Shown: positions 5,349 through 64,000 of the stretch, in pieces | Layout of the letters: every line of letters begins with the position of its first letter | Numbering within the stretch: position 1 is the first letter of the stretch | IMG/VR virus record: IMGVR_UViG_3300011977_000007 | Span: 32,001-96,000 of that record | Reading direction: 5' to 3' (one strand) | DNA: 64,000 bases | Origin: a virus | Taxonomy: Duplodnaviria > Caudoviricetes | Notes under the pieces: model-generated | What the model saw: only the letters and a program-made list of their open reading frames with translations | What the model was told of the DNA's origin: nothing | Database searches by the model: none | Made by a program: the position numbers and the translations under genes

Positions 5349-6950
5349 ATGGCTATTAAGATAGGCGATAATTTTCTATATAGAGGAAAGAAACCTTTAG
5401 ATGAGCGAGATTCATTTAATAATATTGCTGATATGAAAGCTTATGATGAAACTTCTTTAGATGAAGGTCATATTTCATACTGTAAAGCTACTGATAAATA
5501 TTATAAATTTAACTCATCTAATAGCGAAGATGCAAATCTTGGAAAATGGAGAGAGTATACTGTAACTCCAAGTGTTAATGCTGAAGTAGCATTTGATGAT
5601 TATGATGTAAATACTCCATATAAAACTGGCAAATATGTAGTATATAATAATATTATATATAAAGTATTAAAAGATTATACTAGTAAAGATATATCTACGG
5701 ATATTACCGATGGTAATATTGAAAAATACATTGGCGATACTTATAATGATACTAATATTAAGAAAAATATTGCGAGTATAAATAAAGCAATTGGCGATAT
5801 GTCACAATTATCTGTAGTTGGAGTTGCGGATATTGTAAGTGCATTAAATAAAATAGATTTAAGCTTTATGCAATCTATAGTTTTTAATACTAAAGTTGAT
5901 CAACAAAGTGGAAAACCTATTAAAGTATTAACTATAACTTATAAGAATAATAATAGTATTGATGTTGATATTAGCGGAATTATTACTTCTACTAATATTG
6001 GTGAGTTAAAGAATGTAGATGATACTGGAATTACTGACAAGCAGGTATTATCATATGATACTGCTAGTAATAAATATATTCCCACGACTATTGATACTTC
6101 AACAGTATTAACATCAGCTAAGAATTATACAGATTCCAAATTCAATACTTTAAATAAGCAGACTGGTATTGTTGTAGATTCAAAACCATCTATAGTTGAT
6201 AATGGTGATACTACATATACTATTACTTATATAAAAGATAAAGAGACTAAGACTACTAATGATACTAATATTTGGTTTTATTATCCTACGGGAACAGGTG
6301 ATTATTCACAGACTATTTTTATTAGTGGTACTGAAGTTACATTAAGTGTTACTGGTGGTATTGATTTAACTGATTACGTTAATAAGAATAAAGATTTAGC
6401 TAATGGTTTTACTGGGACTGAAGTAGATACTACTAAGATCACTACAATTAAAGAATTGCAGGATTTACTTAATATTGTAAATACTGCATTAGGGAAGAAG
6501 ATAGGAACGACTGACGTAATTGATGATTTATACCATCAGGATAGCGATAAGCCGCTATCCGCTAAACAAGGTAATGAAATTAAGAAATTAATCGATAATA
6601 GTATTGGTGCTATTAGTGGAAATACAATGCTTCGTAAAGTATTTGAGAATGTTAAAGCTAATGAGGAATATACATTGGATTCTGCTTTTTCTCTTAAAGG
6701 TGCATATATTTCTGGAGTTTATAAAATTCAAGATGGTACTTTAAATCAATCTGCCGAATTAAAGAAATTATCATCAAATACAAAACAGGATTTCACTAAG
6801 AATATGGATGAAATTATTATTGATGATAGTGGTGCTAAAATTAAAGATGAATATGATTATAGATTAAATGTAAACGCTGCAGGATTTTTTGAAACTAATA
6901 TTATTACTAAAAATGATTTTATTGATATTATTGGAATTGAGGTGATATAA
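5349..6950 (+). CDS. Tail fibre-like protein with shared MAIKIGDNF N-terminal module
   Basis: ~70-aa N-terminus shared with genes at 8259, 12049 and 13233; DDL...DKPLSAKQG fibre motif. Confidence 0.65.
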   Translation: MAIKIGDNFLYRGKKPLDERDSFNNIADMKAYDETSLDEGHISYCKATDKYYKFNSSNSEDANLGKWREYTVTPSVNAEVAFDDYDVNTPYKTGKYVVYNNIIYKVLKDYTSKDISTDITDGNIEKYIGDTYNDTNIKKNIASINKAIGDMSQLSVVGVADIVSALNKIDLSFMQSIVFNTKVDQQSGKPIKVLTITYKNNNSIDVDISGIITSTNIGELKNVDDTGITDKQVLSYDTASNKYIPTTIDTSTVLTSAKNYTDSKFNTLNKQTGIVVDSKPSIVDNGDTTYTITYIKDKETKTTNDTNIWFYYPTGTGDYSQTIFISGTEVTLSVTGGIDLTDYVNKNKDLANGFTGTEVDTTKITTIKELQDLLNIVNTALGKKIGTTDVIDDLYHQDSDKPLSAKQGNEIKKLIDNSIGAISGNTMLRKVFENVKANEEYTLDSAFSLKGAYISGVYKIQDGTLNQSAELKKLSSNTKQDFTKNMDEIIIDDSGAKIKDEYDYRLNVNAAGFFETNIITKNDFIDIIGIEVI

Positions 6951-8182
6951 TGACTAACTGGGCACTTAAATCTAATGGGGCGATTGCCACTGCAGACAAT
7001 TATGGTGATGCGAACGTTCCAGATAACGCAATAAATGGAAGTTTAGTTACTGGAAATAATCATAATTGGTATGGTGGAAATAGATTAATGGTAACCCTAA
7101 ATGGGAAAAAATCAATATCATCAATGAAGATTATGACTACTGATAATTGGGGGGTACATTGTAATACTTTTGATTTATACTATACTTTGGACGATTCCTT
7201 GGATGTAAATTCTGAATTATCTAAATTTAAAAAAGCTGGTACATTCAAATTTAAAAATACAAAGGATACATTAGAAGAAATAAAATTTGATAATAAATTA
7301 ATTGGAAAAAAATTTATGATTATCCCAGAAATACAAAACAATGGTGTAGCTGTAGTTGAATTTGAATTATGGGGCGATGATTTTGTAGGTGTAATATTAC
7401 AATCAAATAAAAACTATTATTCTATAGATGAAAAATATTATAATTCAAGTACAAAAAATTATAATGCAATATCCGATTTAAGCGCTAGTAATTTTAGCAA
7501 TTATGAATTTAATGTTTCTGATTTATTTAATGAAATTACGATTAATGAAGAAACATTTAAACCTATAGATAAATTTAAGAGTTTTTCTATTATATCTACA
7601 AGTCAAAATACATTAACTGTAAATGGTATTAAAGTAGATAAATCTATGATTGCAACTATGGAACCGTTATCTATGGCTGCATATGAAACAATTCATAATA
7701 TTACTGCGGATTATACTACAGAAAATAATGGTGTTATTAAACTTATTTTCTCATTTAATAAGGGTAATACTTGGAAAACGTACGATGTTTCTACTAATGC
7801 ATGGAATACTGTAAGTGTAAATATTCCCACTAAATTATACGATAATTTCACATCAGAAGAGAAATCTAATTGGGATTCTGCTAGAGATACTATATTATCC
7901 GATGGAATATCTGTACAAAATTTAGGAAATGTAGTATTTTCTACAGAAACAATTAAAACTCTTATGTTTGCCATTGCTTTTAGTAGACCTACATATGCTG
8001 ATACTTGCACTTTAAGGGGATTAAATATTAAGTATGATGGTGTAGTTACTTACATTCAGCTTGCTGTTGGTAGTGATTTAACTAAATATGAAGCTAAAGT
8101 AAGAATTACTGGAGATACTATTAGAGTTACAAGTTCTACAAACTGTGATAAATTACTTATTAGTGTAGTAACTAACGTATAA
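6950..8182 (+). CDS. Discoidin/F5-8 type C-like virion adhesion protein
   Basis: NWALKSNGAIATA..P.NAING...EFELWG N-terminal domain; C-terminal half related to the 15236 product (SFNKGNTWKTY vs SKDSGASWQTY). Confidence 0.55.
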   Translation: MTNWALKSNGAIATADNYGDANVPDNAINGSLVTGNNHNWYGGNRLMVTLNGKKSISSMKIMTTDNWGVHCNTFDLYYTLDDSLDVNSELSKFKKAGTFKFKNTKDTLEEIKFDNKLIGKKFMIIPEIQNNGVAVVEFELWGDDFVGVILQSNKNYYSIDEKYYNSSTKNYNAISDLSASNFSNYEFNVSDLFNEITINEETFKPIDKFKSFSIISTSQNTLTVNGIKVDKSMIATMEPLSMAAYETIHNITADYTTENNGVIKLIFSFNKGNTWKTYDVSTNAWNTVSVNIPTKLYDNFTSEEKSNWDSARDTILSDGISVQNLGNVVFSTETIKTLMFAIAFSRPTYADTCTLRGLNIKYDGVVTYIQLAVGSDLTKYEAKVRITGDTIRVTSSTNCDKLLISVVTNV

Positions 8183-8258
8183 AATAAGCACCATGGGATA
8201 ATGCCCATGGTGCTACCTTTAACATTTTATTAAAATAATGAATAAAGGGGGAAAAGAA

Positions 8259-10781
8259 ATGGCTATTAAGACGGGTGATAATTTCTTATATAGAGGAAAG
8301 AAGCCTTTAGACGATAGAGATAGTTTTGATACGATATCGGATATGATTGCATACGATATTAATTCGCTAGATGAAGGACATATTTCATATTGTAAGGCAA
8401 AAGATAAATATTATAAGTTTAATTCATCTAATGAAGATGATCCTACTACTGGTAAATGGAGAGAATATAATGCCGGTGGTTCTACTATAGATATAATAGA
8501 TGATCTAAATACTCAAAGTGCAATTGCTCCATTATCTGCTAATCAAGGTTATATATTAAGCCAAATGTTTTTAAGCGATTTAAAGTTTAATAGTATTACT
8601 AGGGAAGTTGAACTTATTTCTAAGAATGGTACTAAAACAACTTATTCATTGAAAACCTTTATAGATGATGTTCATAAAACCTTAATGCAGTCTAAAGCTA
8701 TTTATTGCGATAAGTTACCTACATGTGCTCAGGATAGTGATGGTAATTATATAGTTACATATGTAAAAGGTGGTACCACGTTAACAACAAGTGCTGCTAA
8801 TACATGGTTTTATTATAAAGATAATAATAGGGAAGATGTACAAACAATATTCGTTGATGGTGAAGAGATAACGATCCAATCTGGTACTATTGGTGATGTT
8901 GTTGCTATTGATCCTGTATCTAAAAATTGGTTAATTAATGGAGTTGATACTGGGGAATCTTCTAAGGGAGATGCCGGAAAAGATGGTAAATCTATTAGAT
9001 CTATTACAAAAGATGATGAAAATAATATTATTGTTACTTTCAGTGATTCAACAGTACAAAATATTGGTAAATTACAGATTGATATTCAGGGAGATTTCTT
9101 AACTGCTAATGGATTTGGTAATCTTAGGTATTATAATAGTCATTTCCAATATTATGATAAAAATACATCTACTTGGATAGATACTTCTGTCACTCCAGAT
9201 AATGTATATATTATGAATATGACACCACAGGAAATGAAGAAAATTTTTTGTGTGTATGATACAGCTTTAAGTAAATATAAACTTAAATTTAAAGAACCTG
9301 ATGATACTATTATTGATGGTCAAGTTGCTTGCATTGTTGAAAAGGTTATTATTCGTAGGAAACTTGGCTCAGTACCTACAAGTGAAACTGATGGAGAATT
9401 AGTTCTTGAAATAAAACGTAAAGATTTTGGAAGTTATAAAAATGAATATTTTGTAGATACTACTCTCTCACCTTCTGATGGTGATATTTATTATTATAAA
9501 GCATTCCCTATGAGTACAACAGGATTTTATAATACTAATCCTGCTAATGAAACAGATGGCATCAAGTGTAAGAATTATAACTTATATGGATTTAAATTAG
9601 ACCAAAATGAATCTGATCCAAATAGTATGATTACATATTTATCAGATTGTGACAACAAATATTATGAATCTGCAAAAATGAATTATACTGCTGATAAATT
9701 TAATTATGGTGATTGGGCAGATGCATGGTTTATTAAAAATTTGAAGCCTTGTATGCTAAAATATGATGGTACAGTTGATTATGAGTTGAATCCAAATGAT
9801 TATACCAAGAAACTTGATGGCACTGCTTCTGATGTTGCCAATGCTTCTTATGGTGGTAATGCTATGGTTGGTATACCAAAAATATATTGGAAGATCGTAG
9901 ATAATGGTGATAATACAGCCAATATCTATATCTGCGATAAGAAACTTGATGATGATTTTCATTGTTGGTCACATATTGATAATAATGGTAATGAGATAGA
10001 TTATTGTTATATGCCTATTTATAACGGAAGTCTTGTTAGTAGTAAACTACGAAGTTTGTCAGGGAAAACACCAATGGAGAACAAAACTACAACTAATGAA
10101 ATCACTTATGCTAAAGCAAATAACACTGGTTCGGATGTTATTTGGTATACAGAATTGTTTAATGACAGGATGTTAATCAATCTTCTATTATTGCTTATTG
10201 GTAAATCAACTGATACGCAGACTGTATTCGGAACAGGTAATAATAATTCATATGTTTCTACTTCTAATACAGGTGTTAAGAATACAGGTACTATGAATAC
10301 AAAAGGATTATTCTGGGGAAATCAGGATAATGTTAGTGGTGTCAAAGTATTTGGTATAGAACATTGGTATGGAAATATATGGAGACGTATTGGCGGTTGG
10401 ATTAATGATAAAGGCACACAGAAAATCAAGATGACTTATGGACAGTCTGACGGTTCAACATCTGACGGATATAATGAAACAGGTAGTGGATATATTTCTA
10501 TTGATGGTGCTACTCCTAGTGGTACAAGAGGTGGATATATTAGTAAGATGCTAATTACTGATAATGGTTTAATACCTACTATTATCAGTGGAAGTGCTAC
10601 TACTTATTATTGTGATGGATTTTGGTTTAATAATTCGCAAGTTGATTATGCTATGGTGGGTGGCGAATCTAACGACGTTTCTCTTGCGGGTGCGTTGTAC
10701 TCGAATCTCGACGAGGCGGTTTCGTCTGCTGGATGGTACGTCTGTGCTTCCCTTTCTTGTAAACCACTTGCAACAACTTAA
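8259..10781 (+). CDS. Tail fibre/receptor-binding protein with C-terminal C-type lectin (Mtd-like) domain
   Basis: Shared N-module; collagen-like KGDAGKDGK; C-terminal FGIEHWYGNIW...VGG...GA...L...S...ASLSC is typical of CLec-fold DGR targets. Confidence 0.7.
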   Translation: MAIKTGDNFLYRGKKPLDDRDSFDTISDMIAYDINSLDEGHISYCKAKDKYYKFNSSNEDDPTTGKWREYNAGGSTIDIIDDLNTQSAIAPLSANQGYILSQMFLSDLKFNSITREVELISKNGTKTTYSLKTFIDDVHKTLMQSKAIYCDKLPTCAQDSDGNYIVTYVKGGTTLTTSAANTWFYYKDNNREDVQTIFVDGEEITIQSGTIGDVVAIDPVSKNWLINGVDTGESSKGDAGKDGKSIRSITKDDENNIIVTFSDSTVQNIGKLQIDIQGDFLTANGFGNLRYYNSHFQYYDKNTSTWIDTSVTPDNVYIMNMTPQEMKKIFCVYDTALSKYKLKFKEPDDTIIDGQVACIVEKVIIRRKLGSVPTSETDGELVLEIKRKDFGSYKNEYFVDTTLSPSDGDIYYYKAFPMSTTGFYNTNPANETDGIKCKNYNLYGFKLDQNESDPNSMITYLSDCDNKYYESAKMNYTADKFNYGDWADAWFIKNLKPCMLKYDGTVDYELNPNDYTKKLDGTASDVANASYGGNAMVGIPKIYWKIVDNGDNTANIYICDKKLDDDFHCWSHIDNNGNEIDYCYMPIYNGSLVSSKLRSLSGKTPMENKTTTNEITYAKANNTGSDVIWYTELFNDRMLINLLLLLIGKSTDTQTVFGTGNNNSYVSTSNTGVKNTGTMNTKGLFWGNQDNVSGVKVFGIEHWYGNIWRRIGGWINDKGTQKIKMTYGQSDGSTSDGYNETGSGYISIDGATPSGTRGGYISKMLITDNGLIPTIISGSATTYYCDGFWFNNSQVDYAMVGGESNDVSLAGALYSNLDEAVSSAGWYVCASLSCKPLATT

Positions 10782-28892: not shown

Positions 28893-31800
28893 ATGGGAAT
28901 TAATGCTCCAAAGCACGTAATACGAAAGCCTAAGCACATTACAAATCCGAAAGACATAGAATATATATTGTCCTTAACAGAGGATGAGGCTGCAGCTAAA
29001 AATACGATAATGGATTTATTTGCCGATTTTGGAGACGGCCCAAGATTTAATACTTATGATATTATAGAAATTCCTAAGGGATCTTATGGTAAAACTAAGA
29101 AGAATAAAAATCAATTTACAACTACAGTTGGATTATATGTATTTAATAAAGGCTGCATAGAAGATATGTCTGATGTACTGGGATATATTAATGAGCCTAT
29201 TACTGCTGATAAGTATGATGAAATAAATGAATTAGTATCATATGCTAAATTGGAAGATAAGATCACTGTACAGCAGTTGAAAGATTTTATAATACAATCT
29301 CAGATTTATATGTCTTGTACTTCAGCATTATCACCATCTCATACAATGGTTCTTCTTTTAATCTCAGATAAAATTGAGGCTAGAAAGAAACAATTATTAA
29401 AAGATAAGTATGGCGAGGCTATAAAGAAGAAAGATATTAAAGCAATGGATGCTCTTGATAAAGAACTTCTTGATTATGCAAAGGAATTATTAAAAGATGA
29501 TCCATCTGTTGATATGTTTAATTCTGGTGCTCGTTCATCATGGGGTAAAATTACTCAGCATATATAGTAATATGTGTGTTTCAATGGGGTTAATTGCAGG
29601 TAATACCTAAAGGCCTTACGCCAAAACGGAATTTGAAAAAATAAACGGTATGGTACGAAAGTAGAAAAAACGTAAGGATGCAATAAGCTGAAATAAAATT
29701 CTATTATAAATTATAATAGATGCTAAGTTGTAATAACAAGGGTTGTTCATGCAGCGAAATACCTAAGTCTATATAGATATGGTAAACGTTCAACGACTAG
29801 CCGATGACGTCGGCGGCTTTGCCTTAATGTAAAACCACAAGTTAATGGTGGAAGAAAAATCCCAGCCCTATAAATATAGGGATGACAAATAGTCTCTGCT
29901 ACTACTTAATCGTAGTGACAACTTGAAATAATATAAGTTGTGTATATAGAGTTGCGTCTATATATAAAGATATAAAAATTATATAATATAAAAATTAAAT
30001 ATAGGTAGATAATTACAATTCTCAAAACACTTCATTAAATCTGTAATGAAAGGTGGTGAGGATCGTGAGTAAAATAAATAACAATAAGCAATATTATAAA
30101 GGTCATAAATATAAAATATACCCAACTGAGGAACAAAAACAAAAGTTGGATAAATTTATAAATCTTTATAGGTACGTTTATAATTGGGCTCTTGCTAAAG
30201 AACAAGAGATATATGAATCTTATAAAAATGGTGAAAGTGAAAAATCATTTTATACTTTCTTTGATTTGTCAAAAATATTTGTACAATATAGAAATTCGCC
30301 TGAAAATAAATGGTTATTAGAATTACCCAACGGTACTGCATGTAATGCGATAAATGAATTGGTTACTGCATATACAAGGTTTTTTAATAATATTAGTGGG
30401 TATCCTAAATTTAAATCTAAGAAAAATTCTAAAAAATCATTTACAACTAGAAATGATAGATTTTATATAGATAAAAATACTGTAAAAATAGAAGGATTAG
30501 ATCTAAATGATAGAATTCAATTAGGGTTTGATTCTGAATATAATAAAGATTCTGTTCATCATAATACAGTTATATCTAAGGATACTATAGGTGATTATTA
30601 TGTGTCATTTTGTACTATTGAAGAAAAAATAGAAATTGATAATTCTGATGGTGGGGTAATAGGTATTGATTTGGGAGTTAGAAATACATTAACAACATCT
30701 GTACCTATTGAAGGTGAATATTTTCATCATCAACCATTTAATAAGATTAGTAAATTAAAACGTAATATATCTAAATTACAAGTTAAAGTATCTCACGATC
30801 AATTACGTAGACTTAATGAAGCAAAACGTACGAAAACCAAGTACGAAGACATACCTAAAAGTAAACGAGAAATTAAGAGAGAAAAAATAATAAATAAGAA
30901 ATACATTAAGATTCATAATATTAAAAATACATATTATGATACTATTATTAAACGTATTATGGATACTAAGCCTAAGGCTGTTGTAATGGAAACTTTTGAA
31001 TATAATAAAATCATACATTCACAAAAATATATGACTAAATATATGGTTGATACTTCATTTTATGATATTACTCAAAAAACAAAGTATCAATGTAATAAAA
31101 GAAATATTCCATTTATTCAGGCACCAGTGCAATATGCATCATCCCAAATATGTAGTAATTGTGGAAATAGGATTAAAATAGGTAATAAAAAGATTTATAG
31201 ATGCCCTATATGTGGTAATACGTTAGATAGAGATCTTAATGCTGCTTATAATCTCGAAGATTTTTATTATGACTATACTGGTACTAATAGATTAGTTGCT
31301 GTAAGTATAGCGTAATTCGTTTACACATTATTTAGGTTAAATAATGAATTTTAATGTACCGAGTTTTACTGTTCTCGGGATGTTAAGATCATTGAGAATT
31401 GTAAGTATATATCATTTATAAGCCCAACCAGCTTAACGTGTGGTATTCACACGGTTGATATATGAATTATGATTTGTTGATATGATAAGTAAATCATAAT
31501 TATATATTTACCTTTATAGGTTTACATATTATATGATTTTAAATACAGTAACAATTTTAAAAACATGTATGTTTCTCGTGGTACTGTTAAATTGACCGAT
31601 GGATCATTTGATATGGTTACTTCATCATATATATCTGGCCTATCAAAAGAAGATCTTGTTAAAGCAAATGATGCTGCTGTTGGTGGTCCTTATAGCCGTG
31701 CTGTAAAAACTAAAGAGGGTGGATATAATGAAAAGAAAATTCTCTATGGATTACAGCATGTAAAAGTATTACCTAAAGGATCTGATTGTGGAACTAATAG

Positions 31801-32527
31801 AACTATAGATGTGACTCTTACTAAAAAGAATATTAAGAATTGGATGTATAGTTTTGTTAAACAAGGATCTAATTTAATAGAAATTACATCTGATACTAAA
31901 GATAAATTTATTGGAAAAACTGTTAAAATGAGATATTTCTCATTATGTGAATCTAAAAATGGAATATGCGAAAAATGTGCCGGAACCTTATTTAATCGTT
32001 TGGGAATTTCCAATGTAGGATTAGCAAGTGATATATTTGGTTCTAGACTAAAGAATACTTCGATAAACTCTTGTCGCTTCATACTGGTAACAGTGTGTAG
32101 AAAATATCTTCTAATTGCTGGAACATGCTAAAGCTCTAATGCCTTAATGGAGAAGAAATTCAGAAATAAGTTTAGAGATGACTCATGGTGAAATAAAAGC
32201 TTATATATCTAATATATAGGTCCTAAAAGTTATTAAAAATGTATAATCAGCAGCGAAGCCTAATAATAATTATTAGGAACGTTCAACGACTATCCCGTTT
32301 GGTGGTGAAATTCCACAATAGGAGTACGGCCTATATGGTGGGTGAGAATCCCTTAAATGGAAATGGAGATATGTCCTCGTATACCTATACGGGGATAGTG
32401 ATATAGTCTATTATCTAGAGAAATACTAGGTCTATACTAGCGTAAAACGTTAGCTGAGAGGAAGAGTTTCCATGTGGCTCAAATTAAATTTTCAGATATG
32501 GATATAGAAGATGCATTTAATTTATAA
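28893..32527 (+). CDS. Phage multisubunit RNA polymerase beta' C-terminal subunit; join(28893..29545,31549..32064,32461..32527), 411 aa
   Basis: Spliced protein has SGARSSWGNNFKN, bridge-helix-like SRAVKTKEGGY, DCGT, C..KNGICEKCAG and trigger-loop-like SMKSFH. Confidence 0.85.
30026..30037 (+). promoter_or_regulatory. Late promoter inside the intron, upstream of tnpB
   Basis: AACA-CTTCAT-TA, about 30 nt before the tnpB start. Confidence 0.7.
30065..31315 (+). CDS. tnpB: TnpB-family RNA-guided endonuclease
   Basis: KYKIYPTEEQK helix-turn-helix, PKFKSKK, RuvC GIDLG / VMET / DRDLNAA, CSNC...CPIC zinc finger; GTG start after AAGGTGG (ORF track start 30053). Confidence 0.92.
   Translation: MSKINNNKQYYKGHKYKIYPTEEQKQKLDKFINLYRYVYNWALAKEQEIYESYKNGESEKSFYTFFDLSKIFVQYRNSPENKWLLELPNGTACNAINELVTAYTRFFNNISGYPKFKSKKNSKKSFTTRNDRFYIDKNTVKIEGLDLNDRIQLGFDSEYNKDSVHHNTVISKDTIGDYYVSFCTIEEKIEIDNSDGGVIGIDLGVRNTLTTSVPIEGEYFHHQPFNKISKLKRNISKLQVKVSHDQLRRLNEAKRTKTKYEDIPKSKREIKREKIINKKYIKIHNIKNTYYDTIIKRIMDTKPKAVVMETFEYNKIIHSQKYMTKYMVDTSFYDITQKTKYQCNKRNIPFIQAPVQYASSQICSNCGNRIKIGNKKIYRCPICGNTLDRDLNAAYNLEDFYYDYTGTNRLVAVSIA
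31316..31548 (+). ncRNA. Putative TnpB omega-RNA scaffold
   Basis: Structured non-coding region between the tnpB stop and the intron 3' end, the expected position for omega-RNA; boundaries inferred. Confidence 0.5.
32065..32460 (+). mobile_element. Group I intron, ORF-less, 396 nt
   Basis: Exon ends ...CGAU, P1 CGAU/GUCG with U.G pair; AAACUCUU pairs with the 3' exon AAGAGUUU (P10); ends in G; splicing gives AT|G in SMKSFH. Confidence 0.92.
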
Positions 32528-36100: not shown

Positions 36101-36898
36101 TTCTCATAATCATGTAGTTACTGGATCTGGAGCATTAGGCACACAACGAGAATTAAGTTGGGTTATTATGCATCTTGATAATAGAGATGAGAAAAATAAA
36201 AATATTGTAATCGACTATGTAGATGGAAATCCGTTAAATAATAGAAAATCAAATCTTAGAATATGCACTCAAGCTCAAAATGTAATAAATAAGAAATTTA
36301 TGAGTACTAATACTAATGGATTTATAGGGGTTAGTTATAAGAAAGATAGAAATTGTTATGATCCAGAGATAAGATTAGGATATGTAAGATGCCATTTAGG
36401 TCAGGTAAAATCTATGGAAGAAGCTGTATATAAAAGAATGATAGCTGAAGAGTTAGTTTTTGGAGAATTTTGCAATGAAGCAGAACATAATAAAAAATTA
36501 GAATTTACTAAAAATATTCCATATGAAAGAAAAAAAGAGCTCGAAGAAATCACAAAACAAAAATTGATAGCTAAAGGCCTTTGGCAATAAGCTATGTAGA
36601 AGTTCCAAATATGCAAAATAATATAGAAGCTGTAATATCAGTTATTCAATTTATATATGATAATATTATATATGCTGAACTTAACACTAAGTCTGATTAC
36701 TGTGAAGTATGTGGATATGATGGTGAGATTAAAATTGTTGAAGATGATAATGGTAAACTTGTATGGGAATGCCCTAAGTGCCATAATAGAGATCAGCATA
36801 AAATGTGCATTGCGCGAAGAACATGCGGTTATATAGGTACACATTATTGGAATCAAGGTAGAACTCAGGAAATAAAAGATAGAGTTCTTCATTTATAA
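33109..36898 (+). CDS. nrdD: Anaerobic (class III) ribonucleotide reductase; join(33109..34487,34930..35578,36584..36898), 780 aa
   Basis: ATP-cone MYVIKRNG; QYGGQS; spliced YPCMGCRSFL and LSPGGAISYVE; YGTPIES; glycyl-radical RRTCGYIG. Confidence 0.95.
34488..34929 (+). mobile_element. Group I intron, ORF-less, 442 nt
   Basis: P1 GCAU/GUGC with U.G pair; CTAACGACTATC and GATATAGTC core; terminal G; restores CMGCRS. Confidence 0.92.
35579..36583 (+). mobile_element. Group I intron with HNH endonuclease ORF, 1005 nt
   Basis: P1 GGUGGU/GCCACC; ACAGACTAA and GATATAGTC core; terminal G; restores PGG|AISY. Confidence 0.92.
35832..36590 (+). CDS. Intron-encoded HNH-AP2 homing endonuclease (possibly inactive)
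   Basis: IDYVDGNPLNNRKSNLRICT..QN followed by an AP2-like GFIGVSY...HLG...EEAV..R..AE domain; N-terminal Cys/His cluster. Confidence 0.85.
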   Translation: MYKCDICGRELKKKNMLHGYNLCSKHMHQLLNHGKFLDNNPRTQNDLNGYKIIGKIVIFDLYDGILSNKISEFIIDFDDIEIVKYHKWRLSHNHVVTGSGALGTQRELSWVIMHLDNRDEKNKNIVIDYVDGNPLNNRKSNLRICTQAQNVINKKFMSTNTNGFIGVSYKKDRNCYDPEIRLGYVRCHLGQVKSMEEAVYKRMIAEELVFGEFCNEAEHNKKLEFTKNIPYERKKELEEITKQKLIAKGLWQ

Positions 36899-60994: not shown

Positions 60995-61046
60995 TTTTAT
61001 CCCTCCATCAAAAAATAAAGAGGGAGCTATAAACTCCCTCAATATT

Positions 61047-64000
61047 TTATCTCATTGCTTGTAATCTTTTAATTTTAGCAATTTCATCTTCTGTATATTC
61101 ACATAATGATTTCATAGAATTAGCATTAATAATTGTATCTCTAGAATGCATCATATCCATATTACAACGTCCATCATTTTTTGAAATAAACATTTGTCTT
61201 GGAGATATGATATTCTCTGCTGCTTCTATAAATGCTCTTGAATATAACAGAAGGATATTTAATGTGTCCAGTATCTTCACACTAGTCGTTAATTAGTGCA
61301 GTTCTCTTACGAACTTCTATGGTTTTTCTCCATATGTTGAGACTATATCATCATCTCTATGAGATGCTTCTCCACTTCGATTTAAAGGGTTCTCACCTAC
61401 CTACTTAGGCCCTACTCCTGTTGACGAATTTCACGTCCCTTCCGGGGATAGTCGTTGAACTATATTAAAAATATAGCTGCTGATTATACATTGTTAATAC
61501 TACTTAGCACTCTATACAGTATAGAGTTTTTTCTCAGCTTATAGCATCTTAGAACTTGTTTCTGTCTTTCGACTCCTAATTATAGGCATCTAAGCTTTAG
61601 CATTTCCCAGCAATTCAAAGAAGATACTTAATATATTACTATATTAAGCGGCAATACATAATTTACCATCGACCGTAAAACGTAAGCTAAGAGCATACGT
61701 TTTAAATAGACTATATCTTCATCCATTATATGGATGCTTTGCTTTTTGATTTAAATGGCCTTATTGCTGCTTTGCCATACCTATATAATGGGCTCTACTC
61801 TAATAACTTGATAGTCGTTGAACTTTCTATAATAATAACTATTATAGTTTAGCTGCTGATTGTACATTATTAATGAACTTTAGCATTTACATAATTCGAC
61901 ACAGCATTACATAAACTTTTTCTCAGCATAGTTCATCTTTAGAATTTTTTCTATCTTTCGATAACATTCACGCTTATTATTACTAATTACGTTGTAGTTT
62001 CTAAAGCATTAATACCTCCCAGCAATTTACAAAGATTTAACCTATATATTACTATATAAGTGACCCCGATGATTTGTTGAGTCTGCAGCAAGTAATTTTA
62101 ATATTAACAGTGAAATACTCATGGTGTAATCCATATTAATTCCTACAACACGACAAAATAATATTCCTCCGTAGCTAATTGTAGGGTTTCTGTTACAATA
62201 TCTTCACACTAGTCGTTAATTAGCGCAGTTCTCTTATGAACTTCCTAGGTATTTCTCCTAGAGTTGAGACTATATCATTACCCATATATATATATGGGTA
62301 TGCTTCCACTTCGATTTAAGAGATTCTCACTCACCTACTTAGGTCCTACTCCAATTGACGATTTTCACGTCCCGTATAGGGGATAGTCGTTGAACGTTCC
62401 TAATAAAATATATTAGGCTTCGCTGCTGATTATACATTGCATAATACCTTAGGACGTATCTATTTTATAAATACGCTTTTATTTCACCATAGTACATCTC
62501 TTCTACTTGTTTCTATCTTTCGATACCTTATATATTATATAGGCTAGAGAGCTTTAGCATTTCCCAGCAATTCAAAAGCATTCGTACACCATATTACTAT
62601 GATATACGGACTAACGTTAATCAGTACAGGTAATCCGCCATCTGAATCTTTAATTAAACCATCTATAATATCATAGACAATCTGATCAAATCCAATCTGT
62701 GCTTTATACCATTTCTTATATGCATCTGCATATGAAAAATTATAAGTCCTTACAAGTATATTAATTATTACCTGTTGTAATAATTCACATAAGCCATGAT
62801 ATGGTAATTTTACCTGATCTGGCATTAAATGTACATCTTGTCTAATAACCGAACGGCTACTAAACGAGTCGGCGGGTTCACATAGGTCGTTAATCTATGC
62901 AGTTTTCTTATGAACTTCTCTAGGTGTTACCTAGAAGCCCAGACTATATCACATACCTTATCTTATAAGGCATCTTTCTTTTTCGATTTAAGGGGTTCTC
63001 ACCCACCACTTGGCCCTACTCCTGTTGGCATTTTATTAAGGGCTGCCCAATGGGATAGTCGTTGAACGTTCCTAATAAAATATATTAGGCTTCGCTGCTG
63101 ATTATACATTGCATAATACCTTAGGACGTATATCAATATATACGCTTTTATTTCACCATAGTACATCTCACTAATTATTTCTATCTTTCGATGCCCTATA
63201 TAGAAGAGGGATAGTGAGCTTTAGCATTTCCCAGCAATTTAAAAAGATTCACGCACTATATTGCTATAATACGTGGGCTGATGATAGTTAACCTACCCAT
63301 TTTGTTCACATAGGTCGTTAATCTATGCAGTTCTCTTATGAACTTCTCTAGTTTTTCTCTAGATGATCAGATTATATCATTATACTTTATTCAAGTATTC
63401 TTCCACTTTGATTTAAGGGATTCTCACCCACCACTTGGCCCTACTCCTATTGCTGAATTTCACAGCCCTTCCGGGGATAGTCGTTGAACGTTCCTAATAA
63501 GATATTAGGCTTCGCTGCTGATTATACATTATACGTTATTTAGGACGTATATAATATATACGCTTTTATTTCACCATGTAACATCTCTCTACTTGTTTCT
63601 GAATTTCTTCACCTTATTATAGGCTAGAGAGCTTTAGCATTTCCCAGCAATTCAAAAGATTATTCGACACTGTGTTACCACAATGAAGCGGCTTAGATAC
63701 AAACCGATCGAAGATCTTAAATCTCCTTTTTTACCTTCAAGAATTTCTTTAAGCTCAGTATATAAAGCATTAAATTCAACCTGAATATCGTATAATACTT
63801 CATATTTATTTTTCTTTTGTCTATCTGGTACTAATTTATCATTATTAGCCTGATATACTAAATGAGCTAAAAGATTATAATTCTCATTAGTTTTTTCATA
63901 TTTAAGACTACCAGCATTATCCAATTTGGTAGGTCTTAATAATGTAGTAAATACAGGAATGGATTGAGTAAATACAATATCTTTATGACGCATTATATCA
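61047..64000 (-). CDS. Phage multisubunit RNA polymerase beta' N-terminal (catalytic) subunit, 5'-truncated; exons 64000..63703, 63297..63291, 62869..62620, 62195..62080, 61672..61665, 61268..61047
   Basis: Spliced protein reads GKKGDLRSSIGGRYSFSSRSVI, VLINRNPTI and LAADFDGDTLN; all exon phases are consistent. Confidence 0.92.
61269..61664 (-). mobile_element. Group I intron E, ORF-less, 396 nt
   Basis: P1 UGGU/GCCG, terminal G; splice GGT|GAC (Gly|Asp of DFDGD). Confidence 0.9.
61673..62079 (-). mobile_element. Group I intron D, ORF-less, 407 nt
   Basis: P1 GACU/GGUC, P10 CAUCG/CGAUG, terminal G; splice T|TC (Phe of DFDGD). Confidence 0.9.
62196..62619 (-). mobile_element. Group I intron C, ORF-less, 424 nt
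   Basis: P1 UACUGAU/GUCCGUA (one mismatch), terminal G; splice AT|T restores INRNP. Confidence 0.9.
62870..63290 (-). mobile_element. Group I intron B, ORF-less, 421 nt
   Basis: P1 GUAGGU/GCCCAC (one mismatch), terminal G; splice gives T|AC (Tyr). Confidence 0.85.
63298..63702 (-). mobile_element. Group I intron A, ORF-less, 405 nt
   Basis: P1 CGGU/GCCG, terminal G, conserved core. Confidence 0.9.

Follow-up and report, generated by a model that had tools for sequence, protein, structure and literature searches.

Five group I introns and two micro-exons within the most conserved motifs of a jumbo-phage RNA polymerase gene

How could a phage obtain a working mRNA for a catalytic RNA polymerase (RNAP) subunit from a gene that five introns interrupt, and is such crowding a means of control or a burden left by mobile introns? 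These questions are raised by one locus at the end of a 64,000-nucleotide (nt) stretch of viral DNA (Duplodnaviria; Caudoviricetes), called here the window. The window corresponds to bases 32001-96000 of the 110,263-bp IMG/VR viral contig IMGVR_UViG_3300011977_000007, which has a CheckV completeness of 35%. The record of a near-identical phage measures 265,692 bp, with a completeness of 98%, which makes this an uncultured jumbo phage with a genome of some 266 kb. The gene is read from the minus strand; it starts 620 nt past the window end, a region included in a separately fetched stretch (L007, whose coordinates are window coordinates minus 60000). An initial annotation of the window had proposed that five group I introns, separated in part by exons of 7 and 8 nt, interrupt the gene and could act as a timing or condition gate on the polymerase. 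We found the proposed anatomy to be correct, and we favour a different role for the introns.

The six exons (Table 1), once joined, give a single open frame of 506 codons. Between positions 61269 and 63702 (2434 nt) only 381 nt are exon (7 + 250 + 116 + 8), the remaining 2053 nt being intron, so that the figures of the initial annotation were borne out to the base. All five introns sit in the three most conserved blocks of the protein, GGRxxFSxR, LINRNPT and ADFDGD. The catalytic ADFDGD motif is encoded across three exons as GCA GAC T, TC GAT GGT and GAC, and GGRYSFSSR requires the 7-nt exon GGTAGGT, both as that annotation had read them. Its claim that active enzyme depends on five excisions follows logically from this anatomy: with any intron left in place the reading frame would end or shift, and the catalytic subunit would not be intact. 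Skipping either micro-exon would also shift the frame.

The 506-amino-acid (aa) protein contains a CxC...CxxC zinc site (CDCG...CPSCG) and the motifs KKGDLRSSIGGRYSFSSRSVI, GGRYSFSSR, LINRNPT and AADFDGD, and it ends 72 aa past DFDGD. In blastp comparisons it was colinear with AR9 gp270 (32% identity, E 1e-53), a comparison suggested in the initial annotation, and with phiR1-37 g274 (31% identity, E 5e-56). When Pfam was searched exon by exon, the sole match was a weak one to PF00623 on exon 3, a domain carried by the uninterrupted relatives of this subunit; the family assignment therefore rests on the full-length alignments. By these alignments the product is identified as a beta'-N subunit of the AR9 gp270 / phiR1-37 g274 type, that is, the N-terminal, catalytic half of beta' of a jumbo-phage multisubunit RNAP, and AR9 gp270, annotated as a non-virion RNAP (nvRNAP) subunit, is its closest named relative by sequence. 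The g270 product was also the sole AR9 match of the exon 1 product, and on the basis of this best match the subunit is tentatively placed with the non-virion enzyme and not with the virion one.

Exon 1 begins with a TTG codon situated 7 nt past AAGGAGG, a strong Shine-Dalgarno sequence, and M1 is invariant across 19 aligned homologues. Upstream of the start we observed a terminator-like hairpin followed by an AT-rich stretch with the motif TATATTAT, approximately 110 nt from the start, a motif published for the early promoters of AR9 and MarsHill. These features, together with a terminator directly after the stop codon, suggest that the gene is a monocistronic unit and probably an early one, which fits a non-virion RNAP subunit. 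A second copy of the gene was not found by tblastn in the 110-kb contig, which represents about 35% of the genome.

The positions of the junctions were examined by comparison with alleles and homologues that lack the introns. The spliced protein aligned without gaps at all five junctions with 48 uninterrupted database relatives (498-536 aa, 49-71% identical). In this alignment there is no variation at G306, G307, R308, D430, D432, G433 and D434, and almost none at I392, N393 and F431. As excision of the five stretches opens a 506-codon frame with junction residues conserved in this way, the intron calls are far beyond chance. Furthermore, a natural empty site exists for each of the five introns. 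A close relative, L010, whose coding sequence is 96.6% identical at the nucleotide and 99% at the protein level, has introns at sites 2 and 4, a third intron at an additional (sixth) site, which lies 11 nt downstream of site 3, and none at sites 1, 3 and 5. It reads ATC GGG GGG CGG T without interruption at site 1 and CTG ATT AAT AGA AAT CCT straight through site 3, and at site 5 TCGATGGT is joined directly to GAC. In a protein cluster defined at 90% identity, introns are lacking at sites 1 and 2 in both P0001 and P0127, and in P0001 at site 3 as well; P0132 reads through sites 1 to 4 and breaks at site 5. Codon differences between the gene and L010 are synonymous in 47 cases and non-synonymous in 4, which shows that purifying selection acts on the spliced frame.

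Other anatomies were considered and rejected. A twintron is contradicted by the fact that each of the five introns is a complete match to positions 1-253 of the group I model, and that the 7 or 8 bases are kept in intron-less alleles. A single large intron in place of intron 1-exon 2-intron 2, or of intron 4-exon 5-intron 5, was discarded on account of the full model matches and of relatives carrying either partner alone. For the same tandem pairs an assembly artefact was dismissed, the shared exon being just 7-8 nt long. The sole metagenome match to the junction pattern lay in an unrelated primase-like gene and was set aside as a chance match.

The Rfam model RF00028, for which the gathering score is 50 bits, matched all five introns, a check that had been proposed at the outset. 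Three of them exceed the gathering score over the whole model, namely intron 3 (58.4 bits), intron 2 (53.3 bits) and intron 5 (51.4 bits). Each of the five is preceded by U (GGT, GGT, GAT, ACT and GGT, respectively) and terminated by G, and none contains an open reading frame (ORF) longer than 55 aa. Introns 1, 2, 3 and 5 are mutually 67-79% identical; intron 4 is the most divergent (55-58% identity to the others). Intron 2 and the L010 intron at site 2 are orthologous (90% identity), and intron 4 is 96% identical to the L010 intron at site 4. Intron 1 is nearest (79%) to an L010 intron placed at a different site, which argues for movement between sites and not for descent in place.

Conservation of the fold was evaluated on 10 family members and 71 base pairs, with 500 shuffles and slid controls. 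The structure was 96.3% paired, against 83.6% in the shuffles, none of the 500 reaching the observed value, and 33-46% in the slid controls. Compensatory changes occur in 39 of the 71 pairs, including five of the seven pairs of P3. The structure covers P2, P3, P4-P6 with extensions, the P7 pseudoknot, two hairpins between P7 and P3', and P9-P9.2. These two small hairpins, which covary, belong to a conserved insert of about 70 nt between the 5' strand of P7 and the 3' strand of P3, where subgroup IA (the phage type) would have its extra hairpins P7.1/P7.2. P7 itself is 98.3% paired, the sole unpaired cell of 60 being that of intron 1.

Group I ribozymes recognise their 5' exon solely via the P1 helix. 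The predicted P1 comprises 7 bp in intron 1, 6 bp in intron 3 (with UAAC as its loop) and 5 bp in introns 4 and 5; it uses 3-6 exon bases and has a U.G end. Since only 3-6 exon bases are used, exons of 7 and 8 nt would be just long enough. Exon 2 is the predicted P1 partner of intron 2, and the last four bases of exon 5 are that of intron 5. Intron 4 has a guide that can pair with exon 5 over its whole length of 8 nt, giving a predicted P10 of 8 bp and -9.1 kcal/mol. The pairing of the intron 1 guide was calculated at -9.3 kcal/mol with exon 2 joined to exon 3, versus -4.6 kcal/mol with exon 2 followed by intron 2. Each micro-exon would have two roles, as 3' exon for the intron upstream of it and as P1 substrate for the intron downstream, and because it serves both, neighbouring ribozymes would compete for the same few bases. 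A splicing order, or interference between neighbours, is therefore plausible from these modelled pairings.

The introns of this gene are members of a larger family. A family profile run with nhmmer gave 12 matches in the 110-kb contig, which we read as at least 11 copies: five in the RNAP subunit gene, four in gyrB, one in another RNAP gene and one in a TnpB-carrying intron. The members in the other RNAP gene lie at window positions 32073-32429 (+) and 29561-29809 (+), the second belonging to the TnpB-carrying intron. In gyrB (G000 5964-9748, minus strand, outside the window) each of the four family introns follows a GGT codon and has a GCC guide; two of them are just 18 nt apart, and the first, of 1466 nt, is long enough for an ORF. 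Unannotated members were also detected in other phages, after rpoB in Listeria phage LPJP1 (L040 2934-3339; nhmmer E 2e-44) and between two ORFs for beta prime RNAP subunits in Vibrio phage vB_pir03 (L039 2688-3085; E 4e-32).

Searches for proteins that might move the introns gave few candidates. HNH_3 had one match in the contig, at about 36198-36284 (+) of the window within a 258-aa open frame, and no match was obtained in the contig for GIY-YIG, HNH or LAGLIDADG_1. HNH_3 ORFs are few, and occur in this phage and in its relative. The one at approximately 36.2 kb is a candidate free-standing or intron-borne homing nuclease. A reverse transcriptase (PF00078), which would allow spread by reverse splicing, was found neither in the contig nor in the 98%-complete relative.

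The distribution of introns among relatives varies greatly. In 27 IMG/VR relatives, retrieved with an alignment as query, the gene shows 0-3 interruptions by tblastn, most having none, and 26 more distant relatives have 0-2 introns. Across alleles that share at least 90% identity, introns occupy seven different sites, combined in many ways. Among the best 120 database proteins 48 are whole, the rest ending at a few hot spots. Judging by the read-through tails of truncated database ORFs, the clade has 12 or more different insertion sites, all from codon 293 to codon 434, and ORFs with the read-through tail of intron 1 occur on dozens of independent contigs (P0121-P0125, P0128, P0134). Five introns is the highest count found for this gene among its relatives and in the phage literature examined, where up to three per gene are reported (PMC11878797), and the density, called extreme in the initial annotation, is likewise the highest found.

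Synonymous differences to L010 cluster by polymorphic intron sites, at codons 302-308, 393-395, 405-420 and 435-439 (window approximately 63715-63291, 62195-62100 and 61265-61250); for instance, GGT GGT AGG in this gene is GGG GGG CGG in L010. Such clusters resemble what co-conversion, or an adaptation of the exon bases to P1, would leave. Clusters are also found away from intron sites.

We consider it likely that the beta'-N gene has been invaded by five members, all ORF-less, of one group I intron family carried by phages, as selfish elements and not as a control device. Working mRNA would form by five independent self-splicing reactions, each ribozyme finding its 5' exon by a short P1 ending in U.G and ending on its terminal G. 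The introns would be in a rapid flux of gain and loss within a hot zone of an essential gene, and the five-intron state would be a chance stacking of independently polymorphic insertions, with a multiplicative drop in mRNA yield as its likely cost. Rapid turnover of selfish elements is indicated by the seven variable sites among alleles at least 90% identical, by the 99%-identical phage with three introns, and by the distant relatives with none to two.

Several points weigh against this explanation. Introns 1 (44.2 bits, E 2.6e-9) and 4 (35.6 bits, E 1e-6) fall below the gathering score of RF00028, with the full model 1-253 matched. The P7 of intron 1, GACUAU/AUAAUC, contains an uncompensated C.A mismatch, and given this mismatch intron 1 may splice poorly. 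The P1 of intron 2 (GGUU/AGCC, about 4 bp) is weak. Across the exons of 250 and 116 nt the linkage depends on the assembly, and the five-intron combination is present on one contig only, its exact junction patterns being unmatched in two scans of viral contigs. The sequence data show the anatomy, the junctions, the conservation of the fold, the polymorphism and the purifying selection on the spliced frame; that the introns splice, in what order and with what yield, and that they have no regulatory role, is what we infer. The lack of conservation disfavours an ancient regulatory role, yet is compatible with a current effect on timing or yield. Some of the same points, i.e. the mismatch in P7 of intron 1, the weak P1 of intron 2 and the occurrence of the combination on one contig, itself a fragment of 35% completeness, could mean that the allele is crippled or artefactual: the contig would then stem from a defective variant or from a chimera of strains, and splicing of its gene to a working mRNA would be incomplete. 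We regard this as highly improbable, because read-through tails of intron 1 on dozens of independent contigs indicate a stable natural occupation of site 1, a micro-exon of 7 or 8 nt is too little sequence for an assembly to be joined on, strong purifying selection acts on the exons (47 synonymous versus 4 non-synonymous differences), and all helices but P7 of intron 1 are intact.

The gate suggested in the initial annotation would consist of five serial self-splicing steps that delay nvRNAP production or tie it to host conditions such as GTP, Mg2+ or the state of translation, thereby timing late transcription. It has a certain logic, as an active subunit needs all five excisions, yields would multiply over the five introns, and a subunit with its own promoter region bearing TATATTAT would be an early product on which the late genes depend. 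However, the set of introns is not conserved among alleles 90-99% identical: the 99%-identical phage has three, partly at other sites, the alleles of at least 90% identity vary over seven sites, and more distant relatives have none to two. In addition, the five are ordinary copies, paralogues of a genome-wide family with at least 11 members in the contig, no sequence feature marks them as regulated, and independent ribozymes would splice in parallel, so that the slowest one and not the sum would set the delay. This part of the initial annotation was not supported, and we consider a gate very unlikely. The introns might instead protect the gene by destroying conserved targets of homing or competitor nucleases, a multiply immunised allele being favoured in co-infection. 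The nuclease gp210 of phage phiPA3, which nicks the intron-less vRNAP (virion RNAP) gene of phage phiKZ and confers a competitive advantage (PMC11620839), offers a precedent; the HNH-bearing intron of AR9 lies exactly at site 5, the insertion sites match the most conserved motifs, HNH_3 ORFs exist in this phage and its relative, and synonymous differences cluster by polymorphic sites, as co-conversion predicts. Nevertheless, no nuclease is encoded in or beside the five introns, the synonymous clusters also occur away from intron sites, and the pattern is equally expected under purely selfish homing; protection seems to us quite unlikely. A broader adaptive view is likewise unlikely. In it, phages of the population would fight with intron-associated nucleases and each intron would remove a nuclease target, so that the RNAP gene is multiply immunised; in addition, as each micro-exon has to serve two ribozymes, splicing would be forced into an order, the better pairing of the intron 1 guide after loss of intron 2 being an example, and this order would provide a kinetic check on RNAP production. 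Invasion by selfish introns remains the explanation that we prefer.

How does this gene compare with known systems? The gene for the nvRNAP beta'-N subunit of Bacillus phage AR9 (g270/g271) contains a group I intron (bioRxiv 10.1101/2020.12.14.422802), in agreement with the initial remark that RNAP genes of AR9 type bear such introns. AR9 g270 and the gene described here are of the same family, and the AR9 intron occupies the position of intron 5, GAC GGT/GAC, in D-x-D-G/D. AR9 has one 897-nt intron with an HNH gene, whereas here there are five ORF-less introns of about 400 nt, and the profile of this intron family did not match the AR9 intron. In phage phiPA3 the intron-borne HNH nuclease gp210 cuts the phiKZ vRNAP gene at conserved aspartates (PMC11620839). 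The intron of phiPA3 gp211/209 and the predicted phiKZ RNAP introns are likewise group I introns at conserved aspartates of a jumbo-phage RNAP gene (PMC11620839; PMC10914365). In contrast to the five nuclease-free introns here, phiPA3 has a single intron, in a virion-RNAP gene, with an HNH nuclease that serves as a weapon.

Several related self-splicing group I introns in a single phage gene are not new. The orf142 of Staphylococcus phage Twort is said to have three of them, and exon skipping, in work attributed to Landthaler and Shub in 1999. Polymerase and terminase genes of the Bastillevirinae have up to three introns per gene (PMC11878797). Both cases differ from the present one in their maximum of three introns as opposed to five, and micro-exons are not mentioned for them in the text examined. 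For exons of this size the nearest parallel is placozoan mitochondrial cox1, in which a 1-nt exon lies between two group IB introns and is fixed in the phylum (PMC5436844). There, as here, two complete, independent group I introns are only a few bases apart and the exon is shorter than, or about as long as, P1. It is an organelle gene with a fixed 1-nt exon, in contrast to the polymorphic exons of 7 and 8 nt in a phage gene. Jug phages carry on average 18.5 group I introns per genome of 360-402 kb, some of which have metatranscriptome reads in support of their splicing (PMC12880540). In Jug and crAss-like phages, as in this phage, many ORF-less group I introns fragment essential genes genome-wide. 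The Jug phages, however, are of another lineage and have terL, nrdD and polymerase genes in 2-3 fragments, as compared with at least 11 copies per 110 kb and five per 1.5-kb coding sequence here.

Five ribozymes within 381 coding nt form the most crowded group I intron arrangement found in a phage gene, and two of the exons are near the minimum length needed for a P1 helix. Phages 90-99% identical span states from none to all five introns over seven sites and constitute a natural allele series, in which one could measure directly what self-splicing introns cost or bring to an essential gene, how introns move without an endonuclease, and how ribozymes interfere over a shared exon. The locus is also a warning for annotation: public protein sets show the subunit mostly as unnamed fragments of about 320, 400 and 430 aa with no Pfam match. 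Gene callers thus fragment the gene, in line with the expectation that standard annotation would miss it.

Table 1. Exons, introns and downstream hairpin of the interrupted RNAP subunit gene, in window coordinates
Feature	Position	Strand	Description
Exon 1	64620..63703 (in window 63703..64000)	-	918 nt, aa 1-306, ends ...KKGDLRSSIG
Intron 1	63702..63298	-	405 nt, ORF-less group I; preceded by ...CGGT, ends ...AAAATG
Exon 2	63297..63291	-	7-nt micro-exon GGTAGGT; G307, R308 and base 1 of Y309
Intron 2	63290..62870	-	421 nt, ORF-less group I
Exon 3	62869..62620	-	250 nt, aa 309-392, YSFSSRSVI... to ...GGLPVLI
Intron 3	62619..62196	-	424 nt, ORF-less group I; flanked by CTGAT and TAACAGA
Exon 4	62195..62080	-	116 nt, aa 392-431, NRNPTISYGG... 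to ...LLAAD plus base 1 of F431
Intron 4	62079..61673	-	407 nt, ORF-less group I
Exon 5	61672..61665	-	8-nt micro-exon TCGATGGT; completes F431, then D432 and G433 of ADFDGD
Intron 5	61664..61269	-	396 nt, ORF-less group I; between GGT and GAC
Exon 6	61268..61047	-	222 nt including stop, aa 434-506, starts DTLNILLLY...
Terminator-like hairpin and T-run	61020..61040	-	directly after the stop codon

Two further observations concern the region past the window end, on the minus strand. At L007 4801-5187 (window-equivalent 64801-65187) an ATG-initiated ORF of 21 codons overlaps a start-less frame of 115 codons. The overlap contains the -1 slippery heptamer T TTA AAC, and the segment is absent upstream of the L010 gene; it may represent a programmed frameshift gene or a broken gene. 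Farther on, L007 5327-7060 contains two alternating paralogue pairs of about 135 aa with the C-terminal motif PIPDYTK.

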